Positions 1,001 to 46,979 are shown, counted from the stretch's first letter. The stretch: DNA of 48,758 nucleotides from a virus (IMGVR_UViG_3300031087_000003); one strand, 5' to 3'. Notes: generated from the letters alone by a model not told the origin. Translations and numbers: made by a program.

Positions 1001-1029
1001 TTGACGAGTCCGTCAGTTAAGCATATAGT
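1001..1029 (+). promoter_or_regulatory. Sigma70-like promoter with palindromic operator
   Basis: TTGACG-agtc-CGTCAG-N7-TATAGT; 17-bp spacer between -35 and -10. Confidence 0.7.
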
Positions 1030-1065
1030 GAGTACATAGAGAGCAGCAAGGGTGTTGCTCAGTGA

Positions 1066-1392
1066 ATGAGGATTGAGAGAATGAAAGTAAATAAAAGAGA
1101 AGAAGTAATTAAATTGCTCGAAGCTGCCCAGTCAAAGGAAATAATTTCGAATTTAACGGATGTCAGTATGCGTAAAATTGCCTTTGTAAACAATGAAGGA
1201 ACTGACTGTTATATTGAGTGGTATTGCAATCTGGGAACGCTTCATATTGCTGGGTTTAGTCTCTGGTTTGATGAGATTGAACTTACAGAAACTCATCCAT
1301 GCTACCTTAATGAAATAGGATTTTCCTATGATGGACGCCGTTGTGGCTTCATCGGAAAATTACTCCCGCATCTTAGAAAAGTAGCCAATTAA
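1066..1392 (+). CDS. Hypothetical protein (possible alternative start at 1081)
   Basis: 108-aa ORF downstream of the promoter. GAGG lies 9 nt before the ATG at 1081. Confidence 0.6.
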   Translation: MRIERMKVNKREEVIKLLEAAQSKEIISNLTDVSMRKIAFVNNEGTDCYIEWYCNLGTLHIAGFSLWFDEIELTETHPCYLNEIGFSYDGRRCGFIGKLLPHLRKVAN

Positions 1393-1415
1393 CTATATAA
1401 CCGAGGAGCAATACG

Positions 1416-1562
1416 ATGAGATGGCACTCTAAATATTTTATCGATATGGCGCGTATTGCTCATTACAGAGGTATGCGTCGTCGCAAAGAAGGTTTGACGG
1501 CTGGTGCATATCAGTCATTTACTGAACGTAATTTATACATGAAATTAGCAAGGGGTAACTAA
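1416..1562 (+). CDS. Hypothetical small basic protein (48 aa)
   Basis: GAGGAG SD 6 nt before the ATG. Fills the gap between neighbouring genes. Below the ORF-track size cutoff. Confidence 0.5.
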   Translation: MRWHSKYFIDMARIAHYRGMRRRKEGLTAGAYQSFTERNLYMKLARGN

Positions 1563-1563
1563 T

Positions 1564-1755
1564 ATGTCCGTCACTACACGTAAAGAACTTGAGTCGCAGA
1601 TGTCACCGCTGGAAGCACAGAACCATCTGCACCAGCTTACACACGATTCACTTGCTGCCGGTCATAAGGTTGTGCGGGTGATGACCAGTGTTACTGATAC
1701 AGCGCTGCGCACCCGCCGGACTATTCAGGAGGTAAGGGTATGCGCTACGGAATGA
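1564..1755 (+). CDS. Hypothetical protein (63 aa)
   Basis: ORF with AAGGGG upstream, tightly packed against its neighbours. Confidence 0.55.
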   Translation: MSVTTRKELESQMSPLEAQNHLHQLTHDSLAAGHKVVRVMTSVTDTALRTRRTIQEVRVCATE

Positions 1756-1801
1756 GCTACTTTGAACTCGCTGAATATTGTCTGCAACTGGAGAAAGAAT
1801 T

Positions 1802-2269
1802 ATGTACGCTAAAGACATTTACGGGAGCGCAAAGCGTCAGCAAAGAGTCGAACAGCTTAAACAACTGGCGGGTAAGTCTGGAGTGGGCGAAATTGCCGCT
1901 CACATGGGCTGCTCCGAGCAAGCCGTAAAGTGTCTGGCGCAGCGTAACGGTATCAGTCTGGCTATTGATGTCACACCGTGGAGTCGTGAGCATGAGGAGT
2001 ATGTGCGACGCAATGCGCAAAGCATGACAATGGCGCAGATGTCGAAGGTACTCGGTCGCTCCGTGGTGAGTATCAAGGCGTTCTGTCAGCGTAAGAATAT
2101 CAGCATGATGAAGCGCGGGCAGTATCACCACGCGGCTATTGCAACTGATGAAGATGTGGAGCTTTGTCGACAGTTACATGAGGCTAAGATGCCACTTAAA
2201 ATGATTGCACGTAAGATGGAATTCAGTATTCATCTGGTGCGTAACATTGTGTATTACCAGAGGGCTTAA
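1802..2269 (+). CDS. DNA-binding protein with three tandem helix-turn-helix-like repeats
   Basis: GGAGAA SD before the ATG at 1802. Three ~38-aa repeats, ending AQRNGISL, CQRKNISM and VRNIVYYQ. Confidence 0.6.
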   Translation: MYAKDIYGSAKRQQRVEQLKQLAGKSGVGEIAAHMGCSEQAVKCLAQRNGISLAIDVTPWSREHEEYVRRNAQSMTMAQMSKVLGRSVVSIKAFCQRKNISMMKRGQYHHAAIATDEDVELCRQLHEAKMPLKMIARKMEFSIHLVRNIVYYQRA

Positions 2270-2272
2270 GGT

Positions 2273-2884
2273 ATGGATGAGTCAACAAAAGCAAGTAGAA
2301 AAGAATTCGAGCAATGGTTCAAAACAAAATTTTCTCATGCTGAAGAACATCTTTCTGAAGGTAAATATGGCTCAGATTGCGTTCAAACTGCTTGGTTGTC
2401 TTGGCAGGGATCACGACAAGCCCTTGAGATTGCCCTGCCAGTACTGGAGCAGCAGGAAAGCAAAGACGTATTCATTGTGGTGAGAAAGCCGGGCCATCTG
2501 CCATACATCAAAAGGCCAGTAGGCGATATTGCTGATTACCTCATGCAGATATATCAGCACAATCCCAGCGTTAGTTGCGATGTGGTGACTTATCGCTTTC
2601 CGGGTGCATTAGGCCAGTGGGTGCAGGATGGCAAGGAGCTTCTTGCAGAACTTGAAGTGCCGCATCCCACAACGGACACCTACCGGCAGATTGAAAATGA
2701 TGACTGGATTGAGTGGGGTGGTGGGAAATGTCCAGTTCCGGATAACACAAAGGTACAGGTGAAGTTCTGGGATGGGTATGCACCTGTCGTTGACGAACCT
2801 CAAGGCCTGCGCTGGTCGATGATTGAGGAGATGAGCGACATCATCGCCTATCGGGTGATTGAGAATGATGGGAGGGAAGAATGA
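2273..2884 (+). CDS. Hypothetical protein with C-terminal W-x-W-GG-x-CPV domain
   Basis: 203-aa ORF. C-terminus WIEWGGGKCPVPDN..V.V.F.DG..YRV is paralogous to 11859-12527. Confidence 0.65.
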   Translation: MDESTKASRKEFEQWFKTKFSHAEEHLSEGKYGSDCVQTAWLSWQGSRQALEIALPVLEQQESKDVFIVVRKPGHLPYIKRPVGDIADYLMQIYQHNPSVSCDVVTYRFPGALGQWVQDGKELLAELEVPHPTTDTYRQIENDDWIEWGGGKCPVPDNTKVQVKFWDGYAPVVDEPQGLRWSMIEEMSDIIAYRVIENDGREE

Positions 2885-3198
2885 TTACCAACGAGCGTCT
2901 TAATGAAATTGTTGTGCATTCTGGTTTGGAGCCGTGTGATGCAGAGCCTTTCTTCGAGGGCATTAGGATTGGTGAGCTTGTTGACATGGCGAGGGAGCTT
3001 ATTTGTCGGAGAAAGGTATCCGAAGCAGAGAAATCAATTGGTGTCTGGAATCCATTAGTTAATGAGATAGCCGTAAGCCATAAATCCGGCATCAAGATTG
3101 TTGATTTCGCACACTGGCACTGTCACTGCACGATGGAGGTTGTCGTTAGAGATATGTCAGATCATCCACTGGTTAAAGCACGCAAGGAGAGTTCATGA
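2881..3198 (+). CDS. Hypothetical protein (105 aa)
   Basis: ATGA overlap with the upstream stop codon. Confidence 0.6.
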   Translation: MITNERLNEIVVHSGLEPCDAEPFFEGIRIGELVDMARELICRRKVSEAEKSIGVWNPLVNEIAVSHKSGIKIVDFAHWHCHCTMEVVVRDMSDHPLVKARKESS

Positions 3199-3266: not shown

Positions 3267-3295
3267 TGTCACATTAGTTCCCGTGTTTTATGACG

Positions 3296-3319
3296 GTCCC
3301 CGCACGGGGACTTTTTTTT
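3296..3319 (+). terminator. Intrinsic terminator
   Basis: GTCCCC-gcac-GGGGAC followed by T8. Confidence 0.8.
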
Positions 3320-3329
3320 GCATTATATA

Positions 3330-3358
3330 TTGACGGACTCGTCAATGGGGAGTATATT
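3330..3358 (+). promoter_or_regulatory. Sigma70-like promoter with palindromic operator
   Basis: TTGACG-gact-CGTCAA-N7-TATATT. Flank ttttttttgcatNatNtattgacg matches the promoter at 1001. Confidence 0.7.
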
Positions 3359-3436: not shown

Positions 3437-3901
3437 ATGAAAAAGCTAATTTTAGCAACGGTCTTTATGAGTAGTTCTTTTTCGGCGTTCTCCAGTTCTG
3501 ACTGGACATATGAAGAAAAATTGTCAACTGGTGATACATGTTTTTACATGCAGAATTCAGAAACAGGTCAACCTTTTTTGGCTTTAGGTAATGGTGTACC
3601 AGACAGTGTTGCAGAAGAATGTACCAATAATGGAAGTGGTGAAAGAGCAGAGAAAGAGTTTGCCAAGCACAGTCATCCACAATATGCGCCGCAGCCAAAG
3701 GATGAAAATTTTAATCGTGGACTCGACATTTACAATGCGTGTATTGCTGGTGCCAATGTAGATGGGGGTGCACTTGCTAAAATCGTCGGTAAATACAGCG
3801 GTAAACCTTCTGACATTAACAAAATCAGAAAGGCTTACAATTACGGTAGTGTAGTTGCTCGTGGTCCGCGTGACTGCACTAATTACACAATGGGTTACTA
3901 A
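3437..3901 (+). CDS. Secreted protein (Sec signal peptide), function unknown
   Basis: N-terminus MKKLILATVFMSSSFSAFSS is signal-peptide-like. The mature part contains several Cys. Confidence 0.7.
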   Translation: MKKLILATVFMSSSFSAFSSSDWTYEEKLSTGDTCFYMQNSETGQPFLALGNGVPDSVAEECTNNGSGERAEKEFAKHSHPQYAPQPKDENFNRGLDIYNACIAGANVDGGALAKIVGKYSGKPSDINKIRKAYNYGSVVARGPRDCTNYTMGY

Positions 3902-3909
3902 CTAACAGG

Positions 3910-3927
3910 GGCCACCTTCGGGTGGCC
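3910..3927 (+). terminator. Stem-loop without a U-tract (weak terminator or stabiliser)
   Basis: GGCCACC-ttcg-GGTGGCC just after the stop codon. Confidence 0.3.
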
Positions 3928-3943
3928 TCACCAGAGGTGATGT

Positions 3944-4153
3944 ATGGGTCACACAATTATACGCAGGCGCACCGTACGCGCCGACCAGTTACGTGAGGGT
4001 ATGCTGCTGGACTTTGATGACGGTGAGCCTGATATGGTCAAAGAGCTGAAGCATCTGGCGCACAAGGTGCTCTTTACATCACGCGGTTGTCAGTTCTCTC
4101 TGGACCGCGATGAGATTGTACAGACTGTCATCATGATGAGGATTGTAGGATGA
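3944..4153 (+). CDS. Hypothetical protein (69 aa)
   Basis: ORF in a tightly packed same-strand array. Confidence 0.55.
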   Translation: MGHTIIRRRTVRADQLREGMLLDFDDGEPDMVKELKHLAHKVLFTSRGCQFSLDRDEIVQTVIMMRIVG

Positions 4154-4341
4154 GTATGACAAAGAATGATTTTGAACTGCTGGTGCACGCTGATGAGTGC
4201 TTCGTTAAGTCCACGAGTGAGGGTATTGTGACGCTTGTGTACGTGACGGGCGATGAGGTGCATCTGTACAAGGGTAAGTATCATGAGCAGGAATTTCACA
4301 AATTTGTAAGGTGGATGGAAGATGCAAAAGCTGACAAATGA
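4150..4341 (+). CDS. Hypothetical protein (63 aa)
   Basis: ATGA overlap with the upstream stop codon. Confidence 0.55.
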   Translation: MSMTKNDFELLVHADECFVKSTSEGIVTLVYVTGDEVHLYKGKYHEQEFHKFVRWMEDAKADK

Positions 4342-4573
4342 GAAAGCGCGTGAACTGCTGAAAGAGCTGCAGTATGCAAAGGTTGCAATGGGTGGTCAGC
4401 TGTCCATCAAGGATGAGTATTTTAAACAGGCGCTGGAGCGGATGGTAGGAGATTTAAAAGTTCCGGAGTTACCTACTGATTTATGGCAGATAGGCTATGA
4501 GGGAGTATATCGTGAAGACTTCAATATTGGCGCTAAATGGGCGATATCTCAGATGAAGGAGATGAACCAATGA
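4322..4573 (+). CDS. Hypothetical protein (83 aa)
   Basis: ORF with GGATGGAAG upstream. Confidence 0.55.
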   Translation: MQKLTNEKARELLKELQYAKVAMGGQLSIKDEYFKQALERMVGDLKVPELPTDLWQIGYEGVYREDFNIGAKWAISQMKEMNQ

Positions 4574-4761
4574 CACTACTGCAATGCTATCTGGTGCTCT
4601 GTGTCATCATGTCATTGCGTGACACTAGTGAGGATGCATATGATGAGGACTACCACACGCAGCACGTGATGAAGCGGTTTGTGATTAACCTTGTCATGTG
4701 GCACTACTGGTTCGTGATTGACTGTATTGCGTTGTGGAATGTGCGCCGGGGTGGGGAATGA
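4570..4761 (+). CDS. Hypothetical protein (63 aa, hydrophobic N-terminus)
   Basis: The ATG at 4570 overlaps the upstream TGA. It is an internal Met of track ORF 4537-4761. Confidence 0.45.
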   Translation: MTLLQCYLVLCVIMSLRDTSEDAYDEDYHTQHVMKRFVINLVMWHYWFVIDCIALWNVRRGGE

Positions 4762-5108
4762 TGGATATTACTCAGGAGCCTCTGACATGGTTGGGAGAAC
4801 ACCAGTTTGCCAATCGTTACATCGTAAGTGCAGCCAACAGATACACTACAACGAAAGGTGAATATCTGGTGATTCCGTGTGTGAGACATTACAGTAAAGA
4901 GCACCAACCGATTATAAAAGCACTAAGGGATTCTGGTGTTTTAACAAAAACAGTGGTTGCCGGGGACAATCAGGGATTCGTTGACCAGTATTCAAATTAC
5001 TGGACACGAGAACAAGCACTGGTGATAGCAGAGAAAGCGGGTCAAATAGGAAGGAGAGGTGAAAAGGTTTGGCCGAAAGATTTGCTATTTAGTGAAGACC
5101 TTTATTAA
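4758..5108 (+). CDS. Hypothetical protein (116 aa)
   Basis: ATGATG at 4758 overlaps the upstream stop. GGGGA SD. Confidence 0.6.
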   Translation: MMDITQEPLTWLGEHQFANRYIVSAANRYTTTKGEYLVIPCVRHYSKEHQPIIKALRDSGVLTKTVVAGDNQGFVDQYSNYWTREQALVIAEKAGQIGRRGEKVWPKDLLFSEDLY

Positions 5109-9998: not shown

Positions 9999-10027
9999 AA
10001 TATACCCTACTCTGACGGAACCGTCAA
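9999..10027 (-). promoter_or_regulatory. Sigma70-like promoter with palindromic operator (leftward)
   Basis: Minus strand reads TTGACG-gttc-CGTCAG-N7-TATATT. Confidence 0.65.
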
Positions 10028-10797
10028 TGCCTACACAGACTGAAATCGCATACAACCGCAAGCTGCAACAGATTGTTAAACTGGTACGGGCTGACATTGA
10101 CGCAGAGCTTGTACCGGCTATTAAACAGTCTGTGCCGGAATATGTGGCTGACAGCTGGAGTGATGTGATAGCTGCTGTGCTGGAACGTCTCGTAGCACGC
10201 TGGACCAGCCCTTTTGCACGCAAGCAGGCGCGCGACATTGCGGGCAGCTTTGTCAGTGATGCTTCCACACGTGCGATGCGCCAGAGTGTAGGCATTGACC
10301 TGTATGGCGGTAATGACCAACTTGTGGACTATCTTAAAGCTGCTGCAGACCAGAACGCCGCGCTTATCACGTCCATCCCCGCTCAGTATCTGGAACAGGT
10401 GAGCAACATTGTCACGGGTAACATGCGTGCCGGTATGCGCCCCAGCTACATCGAGCAGACACTTGTTAAACAGTTTGGTATTACTAGCCGCAGAGCTAAG
10501 CTGATTGCTACTGACCAATTTGGTAAAATACAAGGTGAAATCAATAAGATACGTCAGGTTAATTCAGGAATTCGCTACTTTCGGTGGGTAACTGCTCATG
10601 ATGAACGCGTGCGTCCTTCTCACGTTGCAGTTGCTAAAAGAGATGTCGGATACGGACCGGGTGTGTTTCGTTGGGATGATTTACCTATTGTAGACGGAGT
10701 GCCCACGTTCTGTGGACAACCCGTCCGGTGTCGATGTGTAGCTGTTCCAGTAACACAAGCGCAAGTAGAACGTAACCGTAAAGCTGCTAAGAAATGA
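10027..10797 (+). CDS. Head morphogenesis protein (Mu F / SPP1 gp7 family)
   Basis: RWVTAHDERVRPSHVA...CRCV signature. Lies after the portal gene. Confidence 0.8.
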   Translation: MPTQTEIAYNRKLQQIVKLVRADIDAELVPAIKQSVPEYVADSWSDVIAAVLERLVARWTSPFARKQARDIAGSFVSDASTRAMRQSVGIDLYGGNDQLVDYLKAAADQNAALITSIPAQYLEQVSNIVTGNMRAGMRPSYIEQTLVKQFGITSRRAKLIATDQFGKIQGEINKIRQVNSGIRYFRWVTAHDERVRPSHVAVAKRDVGYGPGVFRWDDLPIVDGVPTFCGQPVRCRCVAVPVTQAQVERNRKAAKK

Positions 10798-11341
10798 ATC
10801 GGTTACTACCATGATTCTTGCTAAAACCGTAGTGATTTTCGGCTGATTTACGCATACAGCAAGCTTCGAAGAAGTCACGCGTAATACCAAGATGTTTCCC
10901 TTTACCATTCACACCAATCATCGCGACATATGCTCCGGTCTGACCGTGGATTACAACTCCTGAAATTCCTGTTTTATTGCGCTTGTGACGTCGCATGTTT
11001 CTACTGTTCTCAAGCGGTGTTACATTTCTCAAGTTGCACAGTCTGTTGTCTGTAGGGTCGCCGTTTATGTGGTCAATCACGTCTGGTAAATCCCCGTGAA
11101 TATACAGCCACACGATTCGGTGGTACATGTAGTCTTTGTCCAGTAGTCGAATATACTTGTAAAATTTCCCATTCCACTTATTGACCTTGGTGCTACCTGC
11201 TAGAGTTCCAGCAAACCGAGTGTTCCATTTCTTCCAGTTGCGGTCTGTTGTGAACATGTTGCGAGGACGGAGAGTATGGGTGAACAGACCCGTTTCCGGG
11301 TCATATTCTAAACAGGTTCTAACTACTTCATAGAGGTCCAC
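10787..11341 (-). CDS. HNH-AP2 homing endonuclease
   Basis: DHINGDPTDNRLCNLR...ENSRN is an HNH motif, followed by an AP2-like GISGV..G.YVA module. GTG start with GGAGAGG SD. Confidence 0.8.
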   Translation of the reverse strand: MDLYEVVRTCLEYDPETGLFTHTLRPRNMFTTDRNWKKWNTRFAGTLAGSTKVNKWNGKFYKYIRLLDKDYMYHRIVWLYIHGDLPDVIDHINGDPTDNRLCNLRNVTPLENSRNMRRHKRNKTGISGVVIHGQTGAYVAMIGVNGKGKHLGITRDFFEACCMRKSAENHYGFSKNHGSNRFIS

Positions 11342-11624
11342 GGTTACGCCTCTCCCACTTAAATTTAACCAGTCGCACCACAAACCATAAGCCGCGAGCC
11401 ACCATGAACAGCAGTCCCGGAATAAGCAGTGCACCCACTGCAAAAGACTGTGTGGTCAGCGCATCACGTGCAAATACGCACAGGCAGAACCACATGAACC
11501 ACATGCCGTAGAGGAATTGTGTCACGGGTATCTCTCCAATGTTCATTTTTCGTTTATCACCATAGTCACGGATGTATCGTGTTGGTGGCGGTGTTGGTAA
11601 CTGTGGAGGTTGTGGTACTGTCAT
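11328..11624 (-). CDS. Membrane protein (98 aa)
   Basis: Pro-rich N-terminus followed by two hydrophobic helices. The ATG at 11624 overlaps the upstream TGA. Confidence 0.5.
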   Translation of the reverse strand: MTVPQPPQLPTPPPTRYIRDYGDKRKMNIGEIPVTQFLYGMWFMWFCLCVFARDALTTQSFAVGALLIPGLLFMVARGLWFVVRLVKFKWERRNRGPL

Positions 11625-12570: not shown

Positions 12571-12599
12571 AAGTTATCACCTACTGACGGGTACGTCAA
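12571..12599 (-). promoter_or_regulatory. Sigma70-like promoter with palindromic operator (leftward)
   Basis: Minus strand reads TTGACG-tacc-CGTCAG-N7-TAACTT. Confidence 0.6.
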
Positions 12600-15182: not shown

Positions 15183-15189
15183 ATTACTA

Positions 15190-15211
15190 AGCCCTCTTCG
15201 GAGGGCTTTTT
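15190..15211 (+). terminator. Intrinsic terminator
   Basis: AGCCCTC-ttcg-GAGGGCT followed by TTTTT. Confidence 0.8.
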
Positions 15212-16627: not shown

Positions 16628-16656
16628 ACCCTACCCCACTCTGACGCACTCGTCAA
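16628..16656 (-). promoter_or_regulatory. Promoter-operator (leftward), member of the 50-bp repeat family
   Basis: Minus strand reads TTGACG-agtg-CGTCAG-agtgggg-TAGGGT. Confidence 0.6.
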
Positions 16657-18095: not shown

Positions 18096-18124
18096 ACCCT
18101 ACCCCACTTTGACGCATCCGTCAA
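18096..18124 (-). promoter_or_regulatory. Promoter-operator with perfect palindrome arms, member of the 50-bp repeat family
   Basis: TTGACG-catc-CGTCAA. Minus strand continues agtgggg-TAGGGT. Confidence 0.6.
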
Positions 18125-19655: not shown

Positions 19656-20103
19656 ATTTACCAGTACTCCCCATACCACCCTCACCTCTCACGGTTGCCT
19701 CAACTTCATCAACCTGCTCCAGTTTTACCTGCTCTACCGGCATCAGCATAGCCTGTGCAATCCGGTCACCCTGATTAATCTCAAAGCGTTCCAGCCAGCT
19801 ACCGGGCGACTCGTCCCGCGTGAGTTTAACCTGCACCTCACCACGGTAATCACTGTCAATTACGCCCACGCAGTTACTCAGTCGCACCGAATGTTTAAAC
19901 CCGTGACCACTGCGCGAGTAGACCAGTAACACATAACCTTCCGGGATGTCGAAAACAAGCCCCGTGGGAATCGTTACAGACGTCCCCTGATACAACTCGT
20001 GTGGTATGTCCGACACAGCGTACAAATCGAAGCACGCTGCTCCTGATGTCGCGTACGTGGGCATACGTGCGCCGGGGTGAATAAGTTTAACTCCGAGTTT
20101 CAT
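19654..20103 (-). CDS. dut: dUTP diphosphatase (trimeric dUTPase)
   Basis: Motifs AACFDL, GVIDSDYRGE and RGEGGMGSTG. Confidence 0.9.
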   Translation of the reverse strand: MKLGVKLIHPGARMPTYATSGAACFDLYAVSDIPHELYQGTSVTIPTGLVFDIPEGYVLLVYSRSGHGFKHSVRLSNCVGVIDSDYRGEVQVKLTRDESPGSWLERFEINQGDRIAQAMLMPVEQVKLEQVDEVEATVRGEGGMGSTGK

Positions 20104-21987: not shown

Positions 21988-22016
21988 AATATATATCCCA
22001 CTGACGCATTCGTCAA
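21988..22016 (-). promoter_or_regulatory. Sigma70-like promoter with palindromic operator (leftward)
   Basis: Minus strand reads TTGACG-aatg-CGTCAG-N7-TATATT. Confidence 0.65.
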
Positions 22017-25607: not shown

Positions 25608-25636
25608 ACCCTACCCCACTTTGACGCACTCGTCAA
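25608..25636 (-). promoter_or_regulatory. Promoter-operator with perfect palindrome arms, member of the 50-bp repeat family
   Basis: TTGACG-cact-CGTCAA. Minus strand continues agtgggg-TAGGGT. Confidence 0.6.
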
Positions 25637-28709: not shown

Positions 28710-30085
28710 CTGAGCGCCGTCTTTACAGTGTGATTATCAACGGTGACACATACATCAGCGAGAGCGACGCATATCAGTTTCGTGTCGTTTTCGATATCGA
28801 TATTAACCCCGGTGAAACACTGGCGTTTGGCGACTTCCGCATTTATAACCTTGCAAAAGCTTCGACAGTGGATGCCGGTTCTTCGATTGAATTCCGCGCC
28901 GGTTACACCAATCAGGTTGACAGTATATTCAAAGGTTATATTACCAACACGTTCAGAGAACGCGATGGCGCTTCCACAGTGCAGCGCTTTCTGTGTAAGT
29001 CAGGCGATCCAGTTCATGACCGGGGTTCGCTTAACTCGTCGTACAGTCAGGGTGTACAATTGCTGGATGTACTTAAAGACATTGCGCAGCAATGGCCTCG
29101 TCAGCTTGACATTGATGAAACGCAGTTTAGCGGTATCACACTGACCAGTGGTTATATGGTTGACGGTGATATTCCACAAGAGTTAAATCAGCTGGCACAG
29201 GCTTATGACTTTGACTGGCTGCAGGACCGGGGGAGACTTGTCATCACTAAGCGTACTGCAGCGCGTACAACACCTTCCACGGAGATTTCACAGTTCACCG
29301 GTATGGTTGGTGTACCAGAAGTAACACGTGGACCCAACGGGCTCGGCGTGTATGTGATTAACCGTCTGAATCCTTACTTCCGTATCAACGGTCGCATTAA
29401 CATTAAATCAGAGTTCCAGAGTTTTAACGCCGGTAACCTGTTTGTCGTTGGACTGGCCGGTGACGCGCGAGCAACCGGTGAGTACAACATATTTGCTCTG
29501 AGGCATCGCGGCGACTCACACGGAAACCTGTGGGTGACTGAGATTGATGGGCTACGTGCTAACTCAGCGCAGCCGATGATTAGTACCGGTGCGCTGGTCT
29601 GGGGTCAGCGTGTTTCACAGGAGTTCCGTGTGAGAGTACGTGAGATTGCTGGCAACCTTAACATCGATGCGTCATGGTTAATGGCTGTCATGGGATTTGA
29701 GACGGGTTATCTGTTTAACTCCTCAGTCAAAAATCCCGGCAGCAGTGCCACAGGGCTCATTCAGTTTGTGAGTTCCACAGCAAAATCACTTGGTACCAGT
29801 ACGACAGCACTTGCGCGTATGACACCAGTACAACAGCTGGACTACGTTGAAAAGTATTTCAACCAGTACAAAGGACGTATCAATAACATTGGTGACTGTT
29901 ATATGGCGGTGTTCTGGCCTGCCGGTATCGGTAAACCTGACGCGTACGTAATCGCTACGTCACCCTCCAGTGTTTACAACGCTAACGCAGGACTTGATGT
30001 TAACCGTGACGGCACTATCACACGTGGCGAAGCTGTATCGCGCGTGAACGATTCTTATCGTCGTGGTCAGCAATACGCTAAATAA
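28706..30085 (+). CDS. Baseplate hub protein with C-terminal lytic-transglycosylase-like domain
   Basis: The ATG at 28706 overlaps the upstream TGA. C-terminus MGFETGY...SATGLIQF is SLT-like. Confidence 0.7.
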   Translation: MTERRLYSVIINGDTYISESDAYQFRVVFDIDINPGETLAFGDFRIYNLAKASTVDAGSSIEFRAGYTNQVDSIFKGYITNTFRERDGASTVQRFLCKSGDPVHDRGSLNSSYSQGVQLLDVLKDIAQQWPRQLDIDETQFSGITLTSGYMVDGDIPQELNQLAQAYDFDWLQDRGRLVITKRTAARTTPSTEISQFTGMVGVPEVTRGPNGLGVYVINRLNPYFRINGRINIKSEFQSFNAGNLFVVGLAGDARATGEYNIFALRHRGDSHGNLWVTEIDGLRANSAQPMISTGALVWGQRVSQEFRVRVREIAGNLNIDASWLMAVMGFETGYLFNSSVKNPGSSATGLIQFVSSTAKSLGTSTTALARMTPVQQLDYVEKYFNQYKGRINNIGDCYMAVFWPAGIGKPDAYVIATSPSSVYNANAGLDVNRDGTITRGEAVSRVNDSYRRGQQYAK

Positions 30086-30109
30086 AAAAAAATGCCCCAT
30101 TTAAGGGGC
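30084..30109 (-). terminator. Intrinsic terminator oriented for the minus strand
   Basis: Minus strand reads GCCCC-ttaaat-GGGGC-A-TTTTTTTTT. The plus strand has no U-tract after the hairpin. Confidence 0.7.
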
Positions 30110-30389
30110 TAAAAGAGCAGCGGTCTTCAGGTATTACGCGTAATACACTTGATATTACTCCCGAGATTCTCTTAGAAAACCAAGGCTAGACATGAGTCTC
30201 ATCAAATGTACTACGCGTAATACTCCGGTCTCTTCCCGGATGCCAACGCTTGCCGCCAGAGTGCGTAACCTCTCATGAGGGACAACCCAAAACCCGGCTA
30301 CACATTACGTCATTCGTCACCGCGCTACAACGTGGCAAGGAGCTCCACAGCTAACGGTGTGACCCACATGTGATACATGGAAGACCATA
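30086..30389 (-). ncRNA. Candidate ~300-nt non-coding RNA, antisense to the late-operon spacer
   Basis: No ORF over ~27 codons on either strand. Bounded by the leftward promoter at 30396-30425 and the minus-strand terminator. Internal palindromes are present. Confidence 0.4.
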
Positions 30390-30395: not shown

Positions 30396-30425
30396 ATCCT
30401 ATCTCACTTTTGACGTGACTGTCAA
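30396..30425 (-). promoter_or_regulatory. Degenerate promoter-operator (leftward)
   Basis: Minus strand reads TTGACA-gtca-CGTCAA-N8-TAGGAT (18-bp spacer). Confidence 0.45.
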
Positions 30426-36450: not shown

Positions 36451-36467
36451 AGCCGCACGAGGCGGCT
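36451..36467 (-). terminator. Hairpin after the polymerase C-terminal fragment (weak)
   Basis: AGCCGC-ctcgt-GCGGCT then TTTACC on the minus strand. Confidence 0.35.
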
Positions 36468-37119
36468 ATTTGAGGAGGGGTAAAACGAGTTTCTCTGCTT
36501 CAGCAATGTACCAGTCATAACATATCGCTGACCAGTCAAAGTCCTTAGCATCTGCACACTCTGTTACACGGTGACCGGCACAGATACCCGTCTCACGTAC
36601 TGCAGTGTGTTTACTACGTGATTTGGTGTGAATGCGTTCATCCCACGGTATACCAGCTGCATCTGTGTCACCGGGCTGTCCCGTAATCTCACGCATTACC
36701 GAATAGTAGTCATCATCCTTCACACCGTTCTTACGCTTCCACGTACCGGGCTGTCCGGTAGGCTGTAACAACTTAACGAGTGAACCACCTGTACGGCTGA
36801 TGAAGTACCGCGTGGTATTCTGCAATTCCTGCTCGGCACTCCATTCCGGCCAGCGCATAACAAGTGTCGCCGAACGTGGCACTTTAGCGCGTAACATGAA
36901 ATCGAACTGGTCGCGGTGAGAGGTGATAAAGCTGCGGATATCCTTACCGTGTACCAGTGCTGCTTCTGCTGCCATTGGTACAATCATTGCAGATGGGTCC
37001 TGATGATACTGGTATTTATATTCGTATGCTCCTTTCCTTTTAATTTTCATATTTCCAAGACTCCCTACTTGCGTGGTTGGGGTGATATCCAAAATCCTTT
37101 TCGGCTTTTTTTCTAACAC
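36466..37119 (-). CDS. Family-B DNA polymerase, C-terminal fragment (thumb; likely start at 37050)
   Basis: KIKRKGAYEY resembles the PolB KxY motif. GGGAG SD precedes the Met at 37050. Confidence 0.65.
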   Translation of the reverse strand: MLEKKPKRILDITPTTQVGSLGNMKIKRKGAYEYKYQYHQDPSAMIVPMAAEAALVHGKDIRSFITSHRDQFDFMLRAKVPRSATLVMRWPEWSAEQELQNTTRYFISRTGGSLVKLLQPTGQPGTWKRKNGVKDDDYYSVMREITGQPGDTDAAGIPWDERIHTKSRSKHTAVRETGICAGHRVTECADAKDFDWSAICYDWYIAEAEKLVLPLLK

Positions 37120-37585
37120 GTATCGCTTCTGATTTATCTTTGTAAGTTCCTAAGTCGTACCGAATGCCCTGATGAGAAATTCGTGCCAACCAATTATTAC
37201 CGTTTCGCGTTACTCCGCGACAGCCCGACGTATTATCCTTTCGTTCGCCTTGATTTCTTGAGTTTTCAAAAGCGTCGACTAAACGTAAATTAGAGTATCT
37301 GTTGTCTTTTCTGTCACCGTTGATATGGTCTATTTCACCATCTGGATGTTTGCCCGTTTCATGAAACCATGCGAGACGGTGAACGAGGAAATACAATCCG
37401 CGTATATTAACCCAGTAGTATCCGCGATTATTACTTTCAGTTATTGGTATATCACAGGGTTTACACTGTCCCTTGCTGAAGTATCGTTTGATTCTTCGCA
37501 TAACTCCTGTGGTTGGCTCATATGAGAAATGTTCCTTGAAATACAGAGTCGTCAGCTCTTCACGGTTTTTAAATTTCCATTGCAT
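37040..37585 (-). CDS. HNH-AP2 homing endonuclease inserted within the DNA polymerase gene
   Basis: DHINGDRKDNRYSNLR..ENSRN, then an AP2-like GVTRNGNNWLARI module. Paralog of 10787-11341. Confidence 0.85.
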   Translation of the reverse strand: MQWKFKNREELTTLYFKEHFSYEPTTGVMRRIKRYFSKGQCKPCDIPITESNNRGYYWVNIRGLYFLVHRLAWFHETGKHPDGEIDHINGDRKDNRYSNLRLVDAFENSRNQGERKDNTSGCRGVTRNGNNWLARISHQGIRYDLGTYKDKSEAIRVRKKAEKDFGYHPNHASRESWKYEN

Positions 37586-37636: not shown

Positions 37637-39169
37637 TTAGTCAATAGTGATTAAATAATTGTTGACATCCCTCTGATACAGTGACTTGACGATGTCGGTT
37701 TCAAGCCCGAGCATTGTGTCACTTTCCCATTGCTCACTGATGGACTCAACCAAATTGTCATATATAGCTGGATAGTATATGACGGCGCCGTCAGTATTCG
37801 TTTGCGGTATAACAACATCTGGCACTTGAGCAAGCAATCTGTCCACCAACATAGCCAGACAAAGTTGTCCGGTAATGGTAATGCTCAATAGGCATTTGTG
37901 GTCGCAGAAAGGACTGTACTTACTGCCCATGTTGCCGAATGTCCCGTTAAGTGCCAGTTTCAACGTGGCATCGACAATCTTATCACCGGCTCGTTTTGCA
38001 TCGCGTCGCTTAAAGAAAAGCTGCTCATACACGTCACAGAATGTTTCTCCAAGGTGTTCCGGAAAATATCTGTTTTTGATACTTATTGAGGGGTACATGC
38101 TTGTGACATCTTTGTTCTTTAGTAAATATTCTTCAGATGAATGAAAGACACAGTTCGGAATTCCACTGTGGATACCTCCGAGGCCAAAAGAATATTCAAC
38201 ACCATCGACAACCACGCTCATGTCGTTAAAGACGCCTTTGGTGGTAAGTAGTTCATCCTGTTGTTTCTTACTGAGGACAACATTTCGCATGCGCTCCAGA
38301 ATCTGATTGAATTCGGGTCGCGCAAATTTGATGTAGGAAGGTATACAATCAGCAAGTTCAATACGTTCCCGAATTGTTGCACCAGAACAACGGACACCGG
38401 CTTTTTCCAGCTCATTTACGAAAATGTCTTTACCAATCTTCGTGTCCGCATGGTTCATGAAGTTCTTACCATACGTGGCGGTCAGTTCCTCACGGAAGGT
38501 AATCTTTTCCAGACAGCGCACATAAAACTTCAGCGTCTCGCGGACGTCGTGTTTGTTGTACTCAATCAGGATGTCCTTCTGTGCATCATCCAGTGTTGCG
38601 CCCACGGGGAATGGCAGGTCCTTAACGTTACGGGACTGCATGGCTACTTCCAGTGCCTTCAGACTGGTGCGACGTGCCTTGTTATCGAAGTGATTAATTT
38701 TGTAGAGGTCAATCTGCTGAAATACCTGTTCACGGTCCCACACCATGTTAGCCCAGCTATTTTCGTTGTTCGACTCGATAACCTGTTGTGCTTTGGCAAA
38801 GATTTGCTGTGGAGTAACACCCGCGTGTTGCTGAACCAGCCAGTGCATGATTGGATAGTCAAACTCAAGGTTGTTGAAGCCAATACCGCGTGCGCCAGAA
38901 CGTCCCATATTGTGCACCATATCGACAAGTGCCTGCCAGTCATTACGGCGGTCGGAAATCTCATACATGAGTTCCATACCGGTGGCGGCGTGGATAAAGC
39001 AGCACGTGAAGATGTTAGGAAATGTCTCTTCATCATATCCCCAGTCGCGACTGTCCAGTCCCGCTGGACTGGAAAAAGCACTGTCTGCCCCACAGTGTGG
39101 ACATTTGCTGAGGTCAGCAGGGTAGTTTTTCTGGCAAGTCATATCCTCGCATCTGGATAGGTAGTGCAT
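37637..39169 (-). CDS. Family-B DNA polymerase, N-terminal fragment (exonuclease and palm)
   Basis: ExoI YDEET, ExoII FNNLEFDYP, ExoIII YNKHD. Motif A DVTSMYPS, motif B KLALNGTFG, motif C TNTDG. Confidence 0.85.
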   Translation of the reverse strand: MHYLSRCEDMTCQKNYPADLSKCPHCGADSAFSSPAGLDSRDWGYDEETFPNIFTCCFIHAATGMELMYEISDRRNDWQALVDMVHNMGRSGARGIGFNNLEFDYPIMHWLVQQHAGVTPQQIFAKAQQVIESNNENSWANMVWDREQVFQQIDLYKINHFDNKARRTSLKALEVAMQSRNVKDLPFPVGATLDDAQKDILIEYNKHDVRETLKFYVRCLEKITFREELTATYGKNFMNHADTKIGKDIFVNELEKAGVRCSGATIRERIELADCIPSYIKFARPEFNQILERMRNVVLSKKQQDELLTTKGVFNDMSVVVDGVEYSFGLGGIHSGIPNCVFHSSEEYLLKNKDVTSMYPSISIKNRYFPEHLGETFCDVYEQLFFKRRDAKRAGDKIVDATLKLALNGTFGNMGSKYSPFCDHKCLLSITITGQLCLAMLVDRLLAQVPDVVIPQTNTDGAVIYYPAIYDNLVESISEQWESDTMLGLETDIVKSLYQRDVNNYLITID

Positions 39170-40982: not shown

Positions 40983-41011
40983 ACTTTATCTCAGTCTGAC
41001 GCACTCGTCAA
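40983..41011 (-). promoter_or_regulatory. Sigma70-like promoter with palindromic operator (leftward)
   Basis: Minus strand reads TTGACG-agtg-CGTCAG-N7-TAAAGT. Overlaps the stop codon of the nuclease gene. Confidence 0.6.
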
Positions 41012-43268: not shown

Positions 43269-43315
43269 TTACTTGCTCTCTTGTGGTTGACTATGGGACA
43301 GAGTCTAACGTATTC

Positions 43316-43331
43316 TTGACGGACGCGTCAA
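43316..43331. promoter_or_regulatory. Perfect palindromic operator at a divergent junction
   Basis: TTGACG-gacg-CGTCAA between the 43268 (-) and 43350 (+) genes. Leftward -10 candidate is TAGACT. Confidence 0.55.
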
Positions 43332-43349: not shown

Positions 43350-43526
43350 ATGAGAGAAATTAAACGCAAAGTTACTCATCGGCTGTGCCCCAGCTGTGGT
43401 TACGTGATGAGCCAACTGGAGATAGACATGCTACGGTTTCCTGTCGATTGTCCCCGTTGTGGCAAGTGGAACACCAACGCATTCCAGCCCATTAAGTGGG
43501 AGGTCAGCCGCAATGATAACCATTAA
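43350..43526 (+). CDS. Zinc-ribbon protein (58 aa)
   Basis: Unlisted ORF with AGGAG SD and CPSCG...CPRCG. Confidence 0.5.
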   Translation: MREIKRKVTHRLCPSCGYVMSQLEIDMLRFPVDCPRCGKWNTNAFQPIKWEVSRNDNH

Positions 43527-43695
43527 ACAACTGCACCGACCCAGCTACGGCTGGGCAAACTCCACGAGTAAGAAAGATAAGTTCTTTATCAACGGTGTGG
43601 CAGTACCGCCCTACGTGGCCGCCAAGTTCATCCGTAACGCACGTTGTATTGAGTCAAACGTGTGCCGCAAGATTTATGTTTTAGGGAGTGAGTGA
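43513..43695 (+). CDS. Hypothetical protein (60 aa)
   Basis: GGGAGG SD before the internal Met of track ORF 43459-43695. Confidence 0.5.
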   Translation: MITIKQLHRPSYGWANSTSKKDKFFINGVAVPPYVAAKFIRNARCIESNVCRKIYVLGSE

Positions 43696-43696
43696 G

Positions 43697-44071
43697 ATGG
43701 GTGTGATACGTACACATACAGAGCGTCTGGAAAAAGTCATCGAAGCCGGTATTGACCTGCGCCACCACATGCGCGTTAAAACTGAAACAAAGTCGCAGAT
43801 TATTGCAAAACAGCGTGAAACCATTCTCAACCAGTCTGAAATGATTAATGACATGGAAAAAGAGCTGAAACAATTGCGCCTACAGGTGACAGAAAAACAG
43901 CAAACGCGCCAGCTGATTCTGGATGAAAAGAAACAGGATAAGTTACTCAAACTGTCACGTTATAAACATGAGGTGCTGACCCTTAACGCTCTGGTCAGTC
44001 GCATGAAACACTATATCAAACAACAGAATGGCGGTCAGATGCCAGAAGGATGGAAGTGGGGTGACGAGTGA
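43697..44071 (+). CDS. Coiled-coil protein (124 aa)
   Basis: AGGGAG SD 8 nt before the ATG at 43697. Confidence 0.55.
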   Translation: MGVIRTHTERLEKVIEAGIDLRHHMRVKTETKSQIIAKQRETILNQSEMINDMEKELKQLRLQVTEKQQTRQLILDEKKQDKLLKLSRYKHEVLTLNALVSRMKHYIKQQNGGQMPEGWKWGDE

Positions 44072-45801
44072 TGCAGGTGCCAGTATTATCCCCCGTCGCA
44101 GGTGCCATCGCTGATGCAACACGACCGGCGCTGCGACCTTATCAGCAGGAACTGAAGGACCAGATTAATGAGCATTGGAGCACTAAGCCCCGTGAAAACG
44201 TGCTGGCTGTACTCGCAACCGGTGCAGGTAAGACAGTGTTGTTCTCATCCATCATCAGTGATGAGAGCGGTTCTACATGTGCGGTTGCTCACCGTCAGGA
44301 ACTCGTGAGTCAGATTAGCCTGTCACTTGCACGTAATAAGGTACGACACCGTATCATTGGTCCCACTAACGTAGTAAAGATGATTGTCCGTCTCCATATG
44401 GAAGAAACCGGTCATAGCTATTACGACCCGTCCAGCCGTCACGCAGTGGCAGGCGTGGACACACTCGTCCGGCGTGGTGAGAAACTGGCGGACTGGTTAC
44501 CAACCGTCCGGTTGTGGGTAATGGATGAGGCTCACCACGTTTTGCGTGAAAACAAATGGGGCAAGGCTGTAAATATGTTCCCTCATGCACGCGGACTCGG
44601 TGTGACTGCCACCCCGCTACGTGCTGACGGGAATGGGCTGGGTGCACACGCCGATGGTGTTTTCCATGTGATGAAAATTGGTCCGTCCATGCGTGACCTT
44701 ATCAACATGAAATTCCTTACCGAGTATAAACTGTTTGCTCCACCAAGTTCGTTCAGTCGTGATGCAATTAAAGTAAGTACAACCACGGGTGATTTTGTTG
44801 CATCAGAAGTGAGTAAAGCGGTTAACAACTCATCACTGATTGTGCATGATGAGAAAACCATAACCGGTGATGTGGTTAACACCTATAAAAAGTTACTTAA
44901 CGGTATGCTTACGGTGGTGTTTGCTCCGGATGTGAACACCGCTACCGAACTGGAACAGCAGTACATTGCGGCAGGTATTCCGGCTAAATGTGTCCACGGG
45001 GGGATGTCTGATTATGACCGCATAGCGGCTGTGAGGTCTTTCAAGAACCGTGAATATCTTGTGCTCACATCGGTGAGTATTTTTGATGAAGGCTTTGATT
45101 GCCCCGCAATTGAAGCAGTGCAGGACGTTGCAGCCACAGAATCCTTTGGTCGTTTCGTACAGCGTGCTGGTCGCATGTTGCGCCTGAAAGATGGTAAGAA
45201 GTTTGGCTACTATGTGGACCACGTGGGGAATATTGCACGGCACGCAGTGTTTGTTGACCATCCAACCGGTCCTAAGATTGAACTATGTCACAGGGAGTGG
45301 AGTCTGGACCGGCGTGAGCGACGTAGTGGTAAGAGTGAGCCAAGCACTATCCGTGTGTGTACGGCCTGCACCGCCGTGTACGAGCGTTATCTCGATGCGT
45401 GTCCGGACTGCGGTGAGTCTGTACCAAAACCTGCGGTGCGTAGCGGCCCCGAGTATGTGGATGGTGACCTGCTGGAGCTTGACCCCGAGACACTTGCACA
45501 AATGCGTGCCGAGGTTGTGGGAGCACGTGAGACACCCGAGGCAATGCGTGACAGGCTGACAGGAATGGGTGTGCCGGTGCCCGGTGTGATGGCTAATGTA
45601 AAAAGACAGGGACAACGTATTGACGCGCTCGTCAAATTGGATAATACTCTTAGTCAGTGGGCAGGTTACCGCCGTGCTGAAGGTCTGAGTGACAGTGAGA
45701 TATTCCGCAAGTTCTTCTTGCAATTTGGCGTGTCGTGGATTGAGGCTCAGGCGTTAAAGGCTGCTGAAGCCGATAAATTAAGAGAGAGGATTGGGTTATG
45801 A
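44068..45801 (+). CDS. SF2 DEAH-box helicase with C-terminal zinc ribbon
   Basis: ATGAGKT, DEAHH, TATP, QRAGRMLR motifs, plus CTAC..CPDCG. Confidence 0.85.
   Translation: MMQVPVLSPVAGAIADATRPALRPYQQELKDQINEHWSTKPRENVLAVLATGAGKTVLFSSIISDESGSTCAVAHRQELVSQISLSLARNKVRHRIIGPTNVVKMIVRLHMEETGHSYYDPSSRHAVAGVDTLVRRGEKLADWLPTVRLWVMDEAHHVLRENKWGKAVNMFPHARGLGVTATPLRADGNGLGAHADGVFHVMKIGPSMRDLINMKFLTEYKLFAPPSSFSRDAIKVSTTTGDFVASEVSKAVNNSSLIVHDEKTITGDVVNTYKKLLNGMLTVVFAPDVNTATELEQQYIAAGIPAKCVHGGMSDYDRIAAVRSFKNREYLVLTSVSIFDEGFDCPAIEAVQDVAATESFGRFVQRAGRMLRLKDGKKFGYYVDHVGNIARHAVFVDHPTGPKIELCHREWSLDRRERRSGKSEPSTIRVCTACTAVYERYLDACPDCGESVPKPAVRSGPEYVDGDLLELDPETLAQMRAEVVGARETPEAMRDRLTGMGVPVPGVMANVKRQGQRIDALVKLDNTLSQWAGYRRAEGLSDSEIFRKFFLQFGVSWIEAQALKAAEADKLRERIGL
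45620..45648 (+). promoter_or_regulatory. Intragenic promoter-operator inside the helicase 3' end
   Basis: TTGACG-cgct-CGTCAA-N7-AATACT, both arms perfect. Confidence 0.55.
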
Positions 45802-45971
45802 CTAAAAGTGTAGAAATACGTTTCATCAGTAAGAAATTAGACTGGGAATCAGGATTCGATGCCCCTGAAAACTGGGATGAACTTTCGACATCTGAACAAC
45901 AAGAATTGATTTATCAATGGCGAGAGGAAGCTATTGACTCATATGTAGATTGTTATGTTGAGGTAAAGTAA
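45798..45971 (+). CDS. Hypothetical acidic protein (57 aa)
   Basis: Unlisted ORF with ATGA overlap onto the helicase stop. Confidence 0.5.
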   Translation: MTKSVEIRFISKKLDWESGFDAPENWDELSTSEQQELIYQWREEAIDSYVDCYVEVK

Positions 45972-46085
45972 CTATGTGCTACATATGGTGCATCAAAATG
46001 CGCGACAACGCGCCAGACGGCGTGACAGCTTATCACTATCAACAACTCGCGCAGTTATGGCGTGAAAAAGAAGGAGCACCGTGTA

Positions 46086-46274
46086 ATGTGTAAGTGGATT
46101 AGTGTTGAAGATAGATTACCTGAAGAATATGAAGATGTACTGGTCACAGATGGTGTAGAAGTTGCTCTGGGGTTCTTTGTGATGGACCCAGAATATCCGC
46201 AGTGGGGCTATGATGGACACTGTGTCGGAGGATTAGAGACACACTGGCAACCTCTTCCGGAGCCGCCGCAATGA
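46086..46274 (+). CDS. DUF551-like protein
   Basis: AAGGAG SD. MCKWISVEDRLPEE...THWQPLPEPP. Confidence 0.65.
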   Translation: MCKWISVEDRLPEEYEDVLVTDGVEVALGFFVMDPEYPQWGYDGHCVGGLETHWQPLPEPPQ

Positions 46275-46750
46275 CCCCCTCTATCCATGAGTGGGCGCAT
46301 CGCCACAATATCACACCTGCTGCGCTGAGTGAGCTAGCACAGATTATGGGTGTGGAGAGTACGGAGCACGTGTCGGGTGGTGACCGCAGTGAAGCACGCG
46401 TGCAGGATTTGGCAAGACTCACTGCGAGTAAGCTTGGCTGGCGACTTTTCAGAAACAACGTGGGCGTCCTGAAGGATGAGCGTGGAATTCCTGTAAGGTA
46501 CGGATTGTGTAATGACACACCGGCTATGAACAAGCGCATCAAGTCCAGCGACCTCATTGGCATTCGTCCGGTCATTATCACACCTGATATGGTTGGTACC
46601 ACACTGGGTCAGTTTGTGGCGCGTGAGGTGAAGCGTGAAAGCTGGAAGTACAAAGGTACTGAACACGAGCTGGCACAGTTGCGCTTTGGTGAGATTGTGA
46701 CATCGCTGGGTGGTGATTTTAAATTCTGGAATGGAGACGGACCATTGTGA
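46271..46750 (+). CDS. VRR-NUC domain nuclease
   Basis: SDLIGIRPV...GQFVAREVK resembles the D...E.K core of VRR-NUC. Confidence 0.65.
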   Translation: MTPSIHEWAHRHNITPAALSELAQIMGVESTEHVSGGDRSEARVQDLARLTASKLGWRLFRNNVGVLKDERGIPVRYGLCNDTPAMNKRIKSSDLIGIRPVIITPDMVGTTLGQFVAREVKRESWKYKGTEHELAQLRFGEIVTSLGGDFKFWNGDGPL

Positions 46751-46950
46751 AAAACTATCAGTCCGAATATAGTTATATTGTATGTGATTACAGTCATTTA
46801 CCTAATATAACAAAAGGTAAAATTTACAGGTGTTTCAGAAATTCAGAAAATAACTTAGTTTTTGAAGATGATGACGGTGGATTAATACCTGCTGTCGACT
46901 GTACATATGGTTTTGCTTCATCTAGAAAATATCAATTTAGTTTTGTATAG
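46747..46950 (+). CDS. Hypothetical protein (67 aa)
   Basis: GTG overlapping the upstream TGA. AT-rich compared with its neighbours. Confidence 0.45.
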   Translation: MKNYQSEYSYIVCDYSHLPNITKGKIYRCFRNSENNLVFEDDDGGLIPAVDCTYGFASSRKYQFSFV

Positions 46951-46979
46951 TTGACCACTCCGTCAACCCGTGCCATACT
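46951..46979 (+). promoter_or_regulatory. Promoter-operator in front of the TetR-like gene
   Basis: TTGACC-actc-CGTCAA-N7-CATACT. Confidence 0.6.

Follow-up and report, generated by a model that had tools for sequence, protein, structure and literature searches.

A palindromic operator-like element shared by about 14 putative promoters of a myovirus, and a candidate mini-TetR repressor

Repressors of the TetR family, such as TetR acting on tetO, and RutR, use operators that overlap core promoter elements and consist of 16-base-pair (bp) palindromes with half-site centres about 10 bp apart. The same geometry recurs in the viral DNA stretch IMGVR_UViG_3300031087_000003 (48,758 bp; the whole stretch analysed is called the window), where the palindrome TTGACG-N4-CGTCAA contains the -35 element of a family of putative promoters and where a gene encodes a protein of 93 amino acids (aa), here termed mini-TetR, with a homologous DNA-binding domain (Pfam TetR_N). 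Whereas TetR-family repressors comprise about 200 aa with a ligand/dimerisation domain and serve one or two promoters, the phage-encoded protein has neither ligand nor dimerisation domain and would serve about 14. RutR binds the 16-bp box TTGACCAnnTGGTCAA (PMC2475637). The C6/A7 and T10/G11 of this box are not found in the phage consensus, which has G6 and C11, and only the left half of the site at 46951 (TTGACCA) fits. The consensus sequences of FNR and CRP are TTGAT-N4-ATCAA and TGTGA-N6-TCACA, respectively; the phage palindrome reads TTGA-N8-TCAA and is devoid of TGTGA/TCACA arms.

Operators scattered over a phage genome have precedents. The repressors C1 of phage P1 and gp71 of mycobacteriophage L5 act on many operators or 'stoperators' dispersed over the genome. 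The resemblance lies in one small phage repressor, a dozen or more dispersed sites, many of them overlapping promoters, and a coordinated shut-off; in the window, 13-14 sites are spread over 48.7 kilobases (kb). The operators of C1 and gp71, however, are asymmetric, belong to monomeric-type repressors and serve the upkeep of lysogeny, whereas the site described here is a symmetric dyad fused to the -35 element. The protein family also differs, and the phage group that carries mini-TetR has been described as lytic. A second parallel is provided by the late promoters of P1, which have an inverted repeat near -22 and depend on Lpa, and the middle promoters of T4, in which a MotA box replaces the -35 element. 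Here too a phage-specific element lies inside the core promoters of a whole temporal class, beside a sigma70-type -10. Unlike the P1 and T4 elements, which replace the -35 and recruit activators, the present one combines a near-consensus -35 with a repressor-like site.

The gene family has been noted before. In the 'dwarf myoviruses' PhiPLPE, CP-T1 and 138, tetR-like genes of the same family and from the same phage supergroup were interpreted as a cellular regulator that phages had co-opted, its role being unknown; neither an operator nor a promoter motif was described (Comeau et al. 2012; PMC3391216). In the literature searched, which covered few subscription journals, no earlier description of the motif, of Jedunavirus promoters or of a TetR protein with TGACG/CGTCA operators was found. 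Jedunaviruses are among the Klebsiella phages characterised for therapy. The arrangement involves no new principle; it is a clean, widely conserved and directly testable putative regulon in practically important phages.

The window is a complete, circularly permuted genome, its ends being crossed by the primase gene (47300-48758 joined to 1-969). Its best DNA matches are myoviruses of about 49 kb, namely Pantoea phage vB_PagM_AAM22, phage vB_KsaM-C1, Klebsiella jedunaviruses and Pectobacterium phage PEAT2, with 76-84% identity across parts of the genome and the same gene order. The phage is a myovirus of about 49 kb from the Jedunavirus/Peatvirus/Pantoea AAM22 group. Structural genes occupy the + strand; inserted among them are small leftward cassettes that hold non-structural genes, most without an assigned function. 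Replication genes lie at about 36-48.7 kb. Four annotated relatives (L001-L004) were compared, among them vB_KsaM-C1, AAM22, PEAT2 (L003) and KLPPOU148 (L004). Neither integrase nor partition genes were noticed among those called in the window or annotated in these relatives, the window having had no systematic scan for them; the database record of the more distant Vibrio cholerae phage CP-T1 reads 'induced lysogen'.

The palindrome and its promoter context

Across the whole window, TTGACG-N4-CGTCAA (TTGACGNNNNCGTCAA) occurs in five exact copies where 0.00 are expected by chance, at 13 sites when up to one mismatch is allowed (0.17 expected) and at 17 with up to two (2.34 expected). An earlier note made from the DNA without database searches (the sequence-only reading) had listed 13 sites and put the chance expectation well below one; all its coordinates were recovered. 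The four matches added at two mismatches (24557, 25413, 34921 and 37779) are in the range of chance, the last of them keeping an intact core. This 14-bp core, TGACG-N4-CGTCA, is present 12 times against 0.07 expected, and TGACG is paired with CGTCA solely at a spacing of 4, with zero pairs at the other spacings from 0 to 14. Both arms are perfect at 3330, 18109, 25621, 43316 and 45620; the second, third and fourth of these had been recognised earlier and were taken to be the only ones.

In promoter orientation the layout is TTGACG-N4-CGTCA(A/G)-N7-TAnnnT. The spacer, previously described as fixed at 17 bp, has this length at 11 sites and measures 18 bp at 30410 and 43316. The -10 hexamers already named are correct and are joined by AATACT at 45620, a TG-extended CATACT at 46951 and TAGACT at 43316. 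When candidates of the form TTGAC[GA]-N16-18-TAnnnT were selected in the window without regard to the palindrome, CGTCA stood at +10 in all 11, and the same blind selection gave 8/10, 8/11, 9/11 and 7/9 in the four relatives. The result for the window implies that plain consensus promoters lacking the second half-site are essentially absent from the phage. The arm outside the -35 often lacks its outer base (CTGACG) and retains TGACG, which marks the dyad core as the constrained unit.

The surroundings of the sites are those of sigma70 promoters, with a TTGACA-like -35, a spacer of 16-18 bp, a TAnnnT -10 and a downstream gene. An open reading frame (ORF) of at least 30 codons follows 12 of the 13 sites, mostly with a GA-rich, Shine-Dalgarno-like stretch, and starts 20-40 nucleotides (nt) past the predicted transcription start (71 nt at 3330 and 142 nt at 45620). 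The promoters at 1001 and 3330 lie a few bases past strong intrinsic terminators. A generic promoter scan of the window showed no overall enrichment and by itself cannot separate real promoters from chance matches; its top-scoring matches (10 of 12) include the family members 1001, 3330, 10027, 22016 and 30425. Judged by sequence features, the view that the palindrome sites are sigma70-type promoters is supported.

Several observations indicate that the palindrome is more than a -35 element. In the divergent early region, the perfect palindrome TTGACGCGTCCGTCAA belongs to a leftward promoter (43302-43331, - strand; 18-bp spacer, TAGACT) at the head of 43268-41008, and its bases 43316-43331 cover the -10 end and start site of a rightward early promoter (43287-43316, + strand; TTGACT-18-TATTCT), which heads small genes and the helicase gene at roughly 43350-45801 and had been overlooked in the sequence-only reading. 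One palindrome is shared by both divergent promoters in the window and in AAM22. Two palindromes are present there in vB_KsaM-C1 (L001), PEAT2 and KLPPOU148, the second copy, ATGACG-N4-CGTCAA, lying at -8..+8 of a separate TTGACA-17-CA(C/T)AAT promoter; it has lost its first T, as expected of a copy with no -35 role. The site at 45620, inside the coding region of the helicase gene, is the best conserved block in an alignment of five phages that includes CP-T1. A copy over the start of another promoter, the retention of the dyad core and the conservation at 45620 together argue for a function beyond the -35, and the palindrome behaves as a putative operator, the positions -35 to -20 and -8..+8 being of repressor type. 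The earlier suggestion that the second half-site calls for a dimeric DNA-binding protein gains support from the copy over the -10/+1 of a separate promoter and from the block conserved within a coding region.

In PEAT2 (38208-38246) and KLPPOU148 (44707-44745), one divergent region contains TTGACGCCGCCGTCAA followed by a variant TTGATG-N4-CGTCAA, with centres 23 bp apart. Such paired palindromes suggest cooperative or tandem occupancy.

Promoters of this kind serve the replication operons and the small leftward cassettes that interrupt the rightward structural module, and none was found at the head of a rightward structural operon. The claim that the element recurs at almost every operon boundary must therefore be narrowed to non-structural operons. 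The palindrome promoters presumably define a class of non-structural, early genes, their timing being deduced from the genes they precede.

On the + strand, the promoter at 1001-1029 (TTGACGAGTCCGTCAG-N7-TATAGT) stands just after the terminator 968-983 and heads the operon 1066-3198, and the one at 3330-3358 (perfect TTGACGGACTCGTCAA-N7-TATATT) just after the terminator 3295-3312, heading the operon 3437-5108. An internal promoter/operator in the 3' end of the helicase gene (45620-45648, +; perfect TTGACGCGCTCGTCAA-N7-AATACT) heads 45798-46950.

The promoters that follow face leftward. A one-gene cassette (9955-9641) is headed by 9999-10027 (TTGACGGTTCCGTCAG-N7-TATATT), whose palindrome runs into the start codon (ATG at 10027) of the rightward gene for head morphogenesis. 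The leftward gene starting at 12527 follows 12571-12599 (TTGACGTACCCGTCAG-N7-TAACTT), and 8 nt past that palindrome the rightward prohead protease gene probably has its ATG (~12607). Where structural genes begin 0-8 nt past a palindrome, as in these two cases, there is no room for a second promoter. Further along, the cassette 16614-15213 is preceded by 16628-16656 (TTGACGAGTGCGTCAG-N7-TAGGGT), 18062-17472 by 18096-18124 (perfect TTGACGGATGCGTCAA-N7-TAGGGT), an eight-gene cassette that includes the dUTPase gene (21953-19654) by 21988-22016 (TTGACGAATGCGTCAG-N7-TATATT) and 25580-25362 by 25608-25636 (perfect TTGACGAGTGCGTCAA-N7-TAGGGT). In the replication region, 40983-41011 (TTGACGAGTGCGTCAG-N7-TAAAGT) is situated at the stop codon of the exonuclease gene and heads 40775-39972, a DUF2815-type gene annotated in relatives as a gp2.5-like single-stranded DNA-binding protein; still further downstream, this strand also carries the split DNA polymerase gene.

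The variant site at 30396-30425 (- strand; TTGACAGTCACGTCAA, 18-bp spacer, TAGGAT) is the one not followed by an ORF of at least 30 aa. Its T-for-C variant arm is kept in relatives, and its palindrome shares bases with a weak rightward match, GTGACT-17-TATTAT, that precedes the baseplate operon. Downstream of this leftward promoter, a strong terminator is present (GCCCCTTAAATGGGGC and then a T-run, 30109-30094). The sequence 30085-30389 (- strand, about 300 nt) has a folding z of -5.3 with a long, near-perfect hairpin, and its first 150 nt are 77% conserved in AAM22; an Rfam scan of the window gave no matches. From these features, the promoter probably drives a structured candidate RNA, about 300 nt long, with its 3' end at the terminator.

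An additional intact core (TGACGGCGCCGTCA, 37780-37793) falls within the DNA polymerase gene, some 140 nt ahead of the point where the gene is split. No convincing -10 was found on either side and the core is not conserved in relatives; given 0.07 cores expected genome-wide, it may be functional.

Mini-TetR and its association with the palindrome

The mini-TetR gene (47010-47291, + strand) is followed by the primase gene. Its product combines a TetR_N helix-turn-helix (HTH) with three short helices: residues 6-52 score 30 bits with Pfam TetR_N (PF00440), above its cut-off of 24, TetR-family regulators lead the sequence matches in the PDB (best E=4e-7), and an AlphaFold2 model with a predicted local distance difference test score (pLDDT) of 94 shows six helices. 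With this model, Foldseek retrieved TetR-family chains only, aligned over their N-terminal part (target-normalised template modelling score 0.24-0.35). The C-terminal ligand-binding/dimerisation domain of TetR proteins (helices 4 to 9 or 10, in about 180-220 aa total) has no counterpart in the 93 aa. Because this effector domain is the second defining feature of the family, mini-TetR is a truncated relative and not a canonical TetR regulator, and as the ligand-binding domain is missing, no inducer is expected.

The length of about 93 aa is kept in all close homologues, and 90-110 aa are usual across the wider family. A profile search yielded 881 cluster representatives at E<1e-10, mostly of 90-110 aa and some of about 165 aa with a second HTH. 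NCBIfam and PHROGs give no specific name, the family being listed as phrog_8723 with unknown function, and annotations of the 93-aa gene in phages vary from 'TetR family regulator' to 'hypothetical' and 'anti-defence'. An identical protein is on record in a contig of 48,772 bp. Mini-TetR is the sole recognisable HTH or DNA-binding protein conserved in all four annotated relatives, and judging from these sequence comparisons it is most likely a mini-TetR dimer that binds the palindrome and represses.

About one third of the best 150 family representatives (P0019, P0022, P0025, P0042 and others) have 160-200 aa, with an extra N-terminal HTH before a full mini-TetR unit. Such two-HTH relatives may be a single-chain version of the proposed dimer.

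In the gene's own promoter (46951-46979, + strand), the operator is weakened to TTGACC-N4-CGTCAA (TTGACCACTCCGTCAA-N7-CATACT), and the -10 is TG-extended. The TTGACC variant together with a CATACT/AATACT-type -10 precedes the gene in all of L001-L004 and at 34 of 36 IMG/VR loci, at 33 of them at the expected distance and at one displaced by an N-terminal extension; the two loci without it hold the most divergent homologues. A weak operator conserved at the promoter of the regulator itself suggests autoregulation of mini-TetR.

The association extends to distant phages. A collection-wide motif scan led to contigs that share few genes with the window, in which homologues of 34-40% identity are encoded directly behind a canonical TTGACG-N4-CGTCA(A/G)-N7 -10 unit. 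Ten homologues (35-46% identical) were also drawn singly from the profile search, blind to the motif: in seven, TGAC[GA]-N4-[CT]GTCA occurs at most 70 nt upstream of the start codon, where we estimate a chance expectation of about 1e-4 per 100-bp stretch, and the other three have no upstream spacer. CP-T1 encodes a homologue of 35% identity in the same cassette architecture and has about 10 TTGAC-N6-GTCAA sites, several of them syntenic. A motif scan of relatives, as the sequence-only reading had proposed, gave 17 sites in PEAT2. In Pectobacterium phage ZF40, whose virion module is related and which uses cI/cro, mini-TetR is missing and there is no site with up to one mismatch. As both phages belong to the same host genus, this contrast disfavours a host factor. 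The palindrome-promoter arrangement is conserved in phages of Klebsiella, Pantoea, Pectobacterium and Vibrio. The idea of a global switch acting at all sites is consistent with the co-occurrence of the TetR-type HTH protein and the palindrome across distant phages.

In the homologue-bearing Burkholderia phage BcepB1A (L173) another dyad, AGATA-N1-TATCT, occurs four times (6306, 10535, 19694 and 20919). The copies are apparently intergenic, including the divergent early region and a position just after the mini-TetR gene, and they are possibly the operator, or a -10-embedded element, of the BcepB1A homologue.

A repression model and competing explanations

The motif family was observed directly, as were the promoter-like surroundings of its members, their operator-type positions and conservation, and their association with mini-TetR. 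As a whole, the family is probably best explained by about 14 sigma70 promoters of non-structural genes whose palindromic operator would be bound by a repressing mini-TetR dimer. The steps that we infer, from binding and dimerisation to repression, timing and the collision rationale, would be the following. Host sigma70 RNA polymerase would read the non-structural genes from about 14 promoters. In 13 of them the -35 TTGACG would form the left half of a 16-bp operator, (T)TGACG-N4-CGTCA(A/G), at -35 to -20, and in the fourteenth (43287) the same operator would cover the -10 end and the start site. A mini-TetR dimer on this operator, the half-site centres being about one helical turn apart as in TetR-family operators, would exclude sigma region 4 and the polymerase and thus repress transcription. 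At infection no repressor would be present and all promoters would fire. Without a ligand domain, occupancy would be set by protein concentration alone; the protein would build up from its own promoter, which, with its weakened TTGACC half and TG-extended -10, would be the last to close, and the entire promoter set would be turned down together as mini-TetR accumulates. A plausible benefit would be that the leftward cassettes are silenced before rightward late transcription crosses them, so that head-on transcription is removed.

Binding of the palindrome by a host transcription factor, either a RutR-like member of the TetR family or another dimeric HTH protein that couples early transcription to host physiology, appears very unlikely. 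The RutR box shares with the phage motif its 16-bp geometry and the outer TTGAC...GTCAA, and 12 of 14 positions of the site at 46951 fit the RutR consensus; the two motifs nevertheless differ by a symmetric swap at positions 6 and 11, which are G/C in the phage and C/G or T/G in every RutR site of PMC2475637. Host RutR was rejected as the binder on account of these two positions and since it was not among the 60 listed of 70 PDB matches. A single motif family spanning phages of four host genera also speaks against a host protein, as does its absence from ZF40 and presence in PEAT2. The CRP/FNR-type factor considered in the sequence-only reading meets this last objection as well, and the FNR-type spacing TTGA-N6-TCAA differs from the TTGA-N8-TCAA of the phage. 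Somewhat less improbable, though still unlikely, is that another phage protein binds the palindrome or that mini-TetR is an activator or remodeller instead of a repressor. The -10 hexamers are often weak (TAGGGT, TAACTT, TAGACT), activation is known for some LuxR/HapR-type proteins of the TetR family, structures of which are among the Foldseek matches, and for many of the conserved early proteins no fold could be recognised. A site that lies over a consensus -35 with its centre near -27.5, or at -8..+8, is however a repressor position and no known activator position, and no other conserved DNA-binding protein was detected in the four relatives. Of the two proteins named earlier as candidate binders, the one encoded at 47010-47291 has been retained for its TetR-type HTH and its co-occurrence with the palindrome, and the sigma-region-4-like protein of 1778-2269 (+ strand, 163 aa) was dropped as the common binder, as no homologue at E<=1e-4 was detected in the four motif-bearing relatives.

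It is also hardly credible that no regulator is involved and that the second arm is an intrinsic spacer element, a back-to-back -35 on the opposite strand or a DNA hairpin. Several sites do lie between divergent genes (18109, 25621 and 43316), and at 25621 the opposite direction offers a weak CATTCT at the right distance. Most sites, however, have a -10 in one direction only, which led to the rejection of a bidirectional promoter, and the proximity of rightward starts leaves no space for a second one. The CTGACG tolerated in the far arm would weaken a -35 and keeps the TGACG core, copies of the palindrome occur at -8..+8 of a different promoter, and its position upstream of the predicted start places it outside the RNA.

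Some points weigh against repression by mini-TetR. The distant family members PhiPLPE, BcepB1A and SppYZU01 have few sites (1, 1 and 2, respectively), and the loci L039 and L040 carry degenerate versions. Recognition-helix residues differ among homologues that share the same palindrome, with no clean covariation between protein and DNA. Co-occurrence could be tied to the phage lineage or the replication module instead of the mini-TetR gene, and if every early promoter of these phages has the palindrome, it would be seen at whichever early gene has a promoter of its own. Dimerisation is assumed, the canonical TetR dimerisation domain being absent, and the AlphaFold2 model of the 168-aa two-HTH relatives (pLDDT 92.5, predicted template modelling score 0.64) leaves the relative domain orientation uncertain and the dimer geometry unsettled. 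Weak -10 hexamers such as TAGGGT and TAACTT are common, so a positive role is conceivable, and no binding, footprint, transcript-end or timing data for members of the phage group were found in the literature.

If mini-TetR does repress these promoters, it would contend with sigma70 region 4 for identical bases, and escape from repression by mutation would come at the cost of a weaker promoter. The proposal would explain the leftward early cassettes inside the rightward late module, assign a role to the family of 881 cluster representatives (phrog_8723) and offer a concrete, cheaply testable hypothesis of one small protein, one 16-bp site and about 14 promoters. Going further, we put forward tentatively, and with considerable doubt, that a half-size, ligand-less TetR acts as master repressor across a large group of 'dwarf' myoviruses, with Jedunavirus, Peatvirus, AAM22-like and CP-T1-like phages among them, that one operator half is the -35 hexamer itself and that cross-immunity or a carrier state is conceivable. 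Mini-TetR could then confer cross-immunity to related phages, the operator being conserved from Klebsiella to Vibrio phages. A carrier or pseudolysogenic state could exist in phages that are treated as strictly lytic and used therapeutically; immunity or such a state would bear on phage choice. Synthetic biology could likewise gain a compact part from a minimal, inducer-free TetR-type repressor combined with a strong promoter whose operator is built in.

Further features of the genome

The 163-aa protein encoded at 1778-2269, in the operon behind the promoter at 1001, gave sub-threshold matches to sigma70 region 4 and HTH_38 and a strong match to phrog_323 ('transcriptional regulator, D5-like').

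The DNA polymerase gene (- strand) is in two parts, 37637-39169 and 36466-37119, with a 181-aa ORF (37040-37585) between them. The latter has a TG-extended TTGACT-16-TATAGT promoter (37644-37617) without palindrome, and its position makes it a candidate homing endonuclease. A 218-aa ORF (10787-11443, - strand) matches the same stretch of KLPPOU148 (about 19660-20196) as the 181-aa ORF and may, on this ground, be its paralogue.

In L001 (~37030-37050), L003 (~38247-38260) and L004 (~44746-44760), GGTGTACACTGTA(T/A)C recurs in front of structural genes, on the rightward flank of divergent regions, and could be a late-promoter element; the window has only the loosely similar GGGGTACACATTT, near 22040. 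A bidirectional intrinsic terminator (15189-15208; AAGCCCTCTTCGGAGGGCTT, with T-runs on both strands) lies between the ends of the major capsid gene and the leftward cassette 16614-15213.

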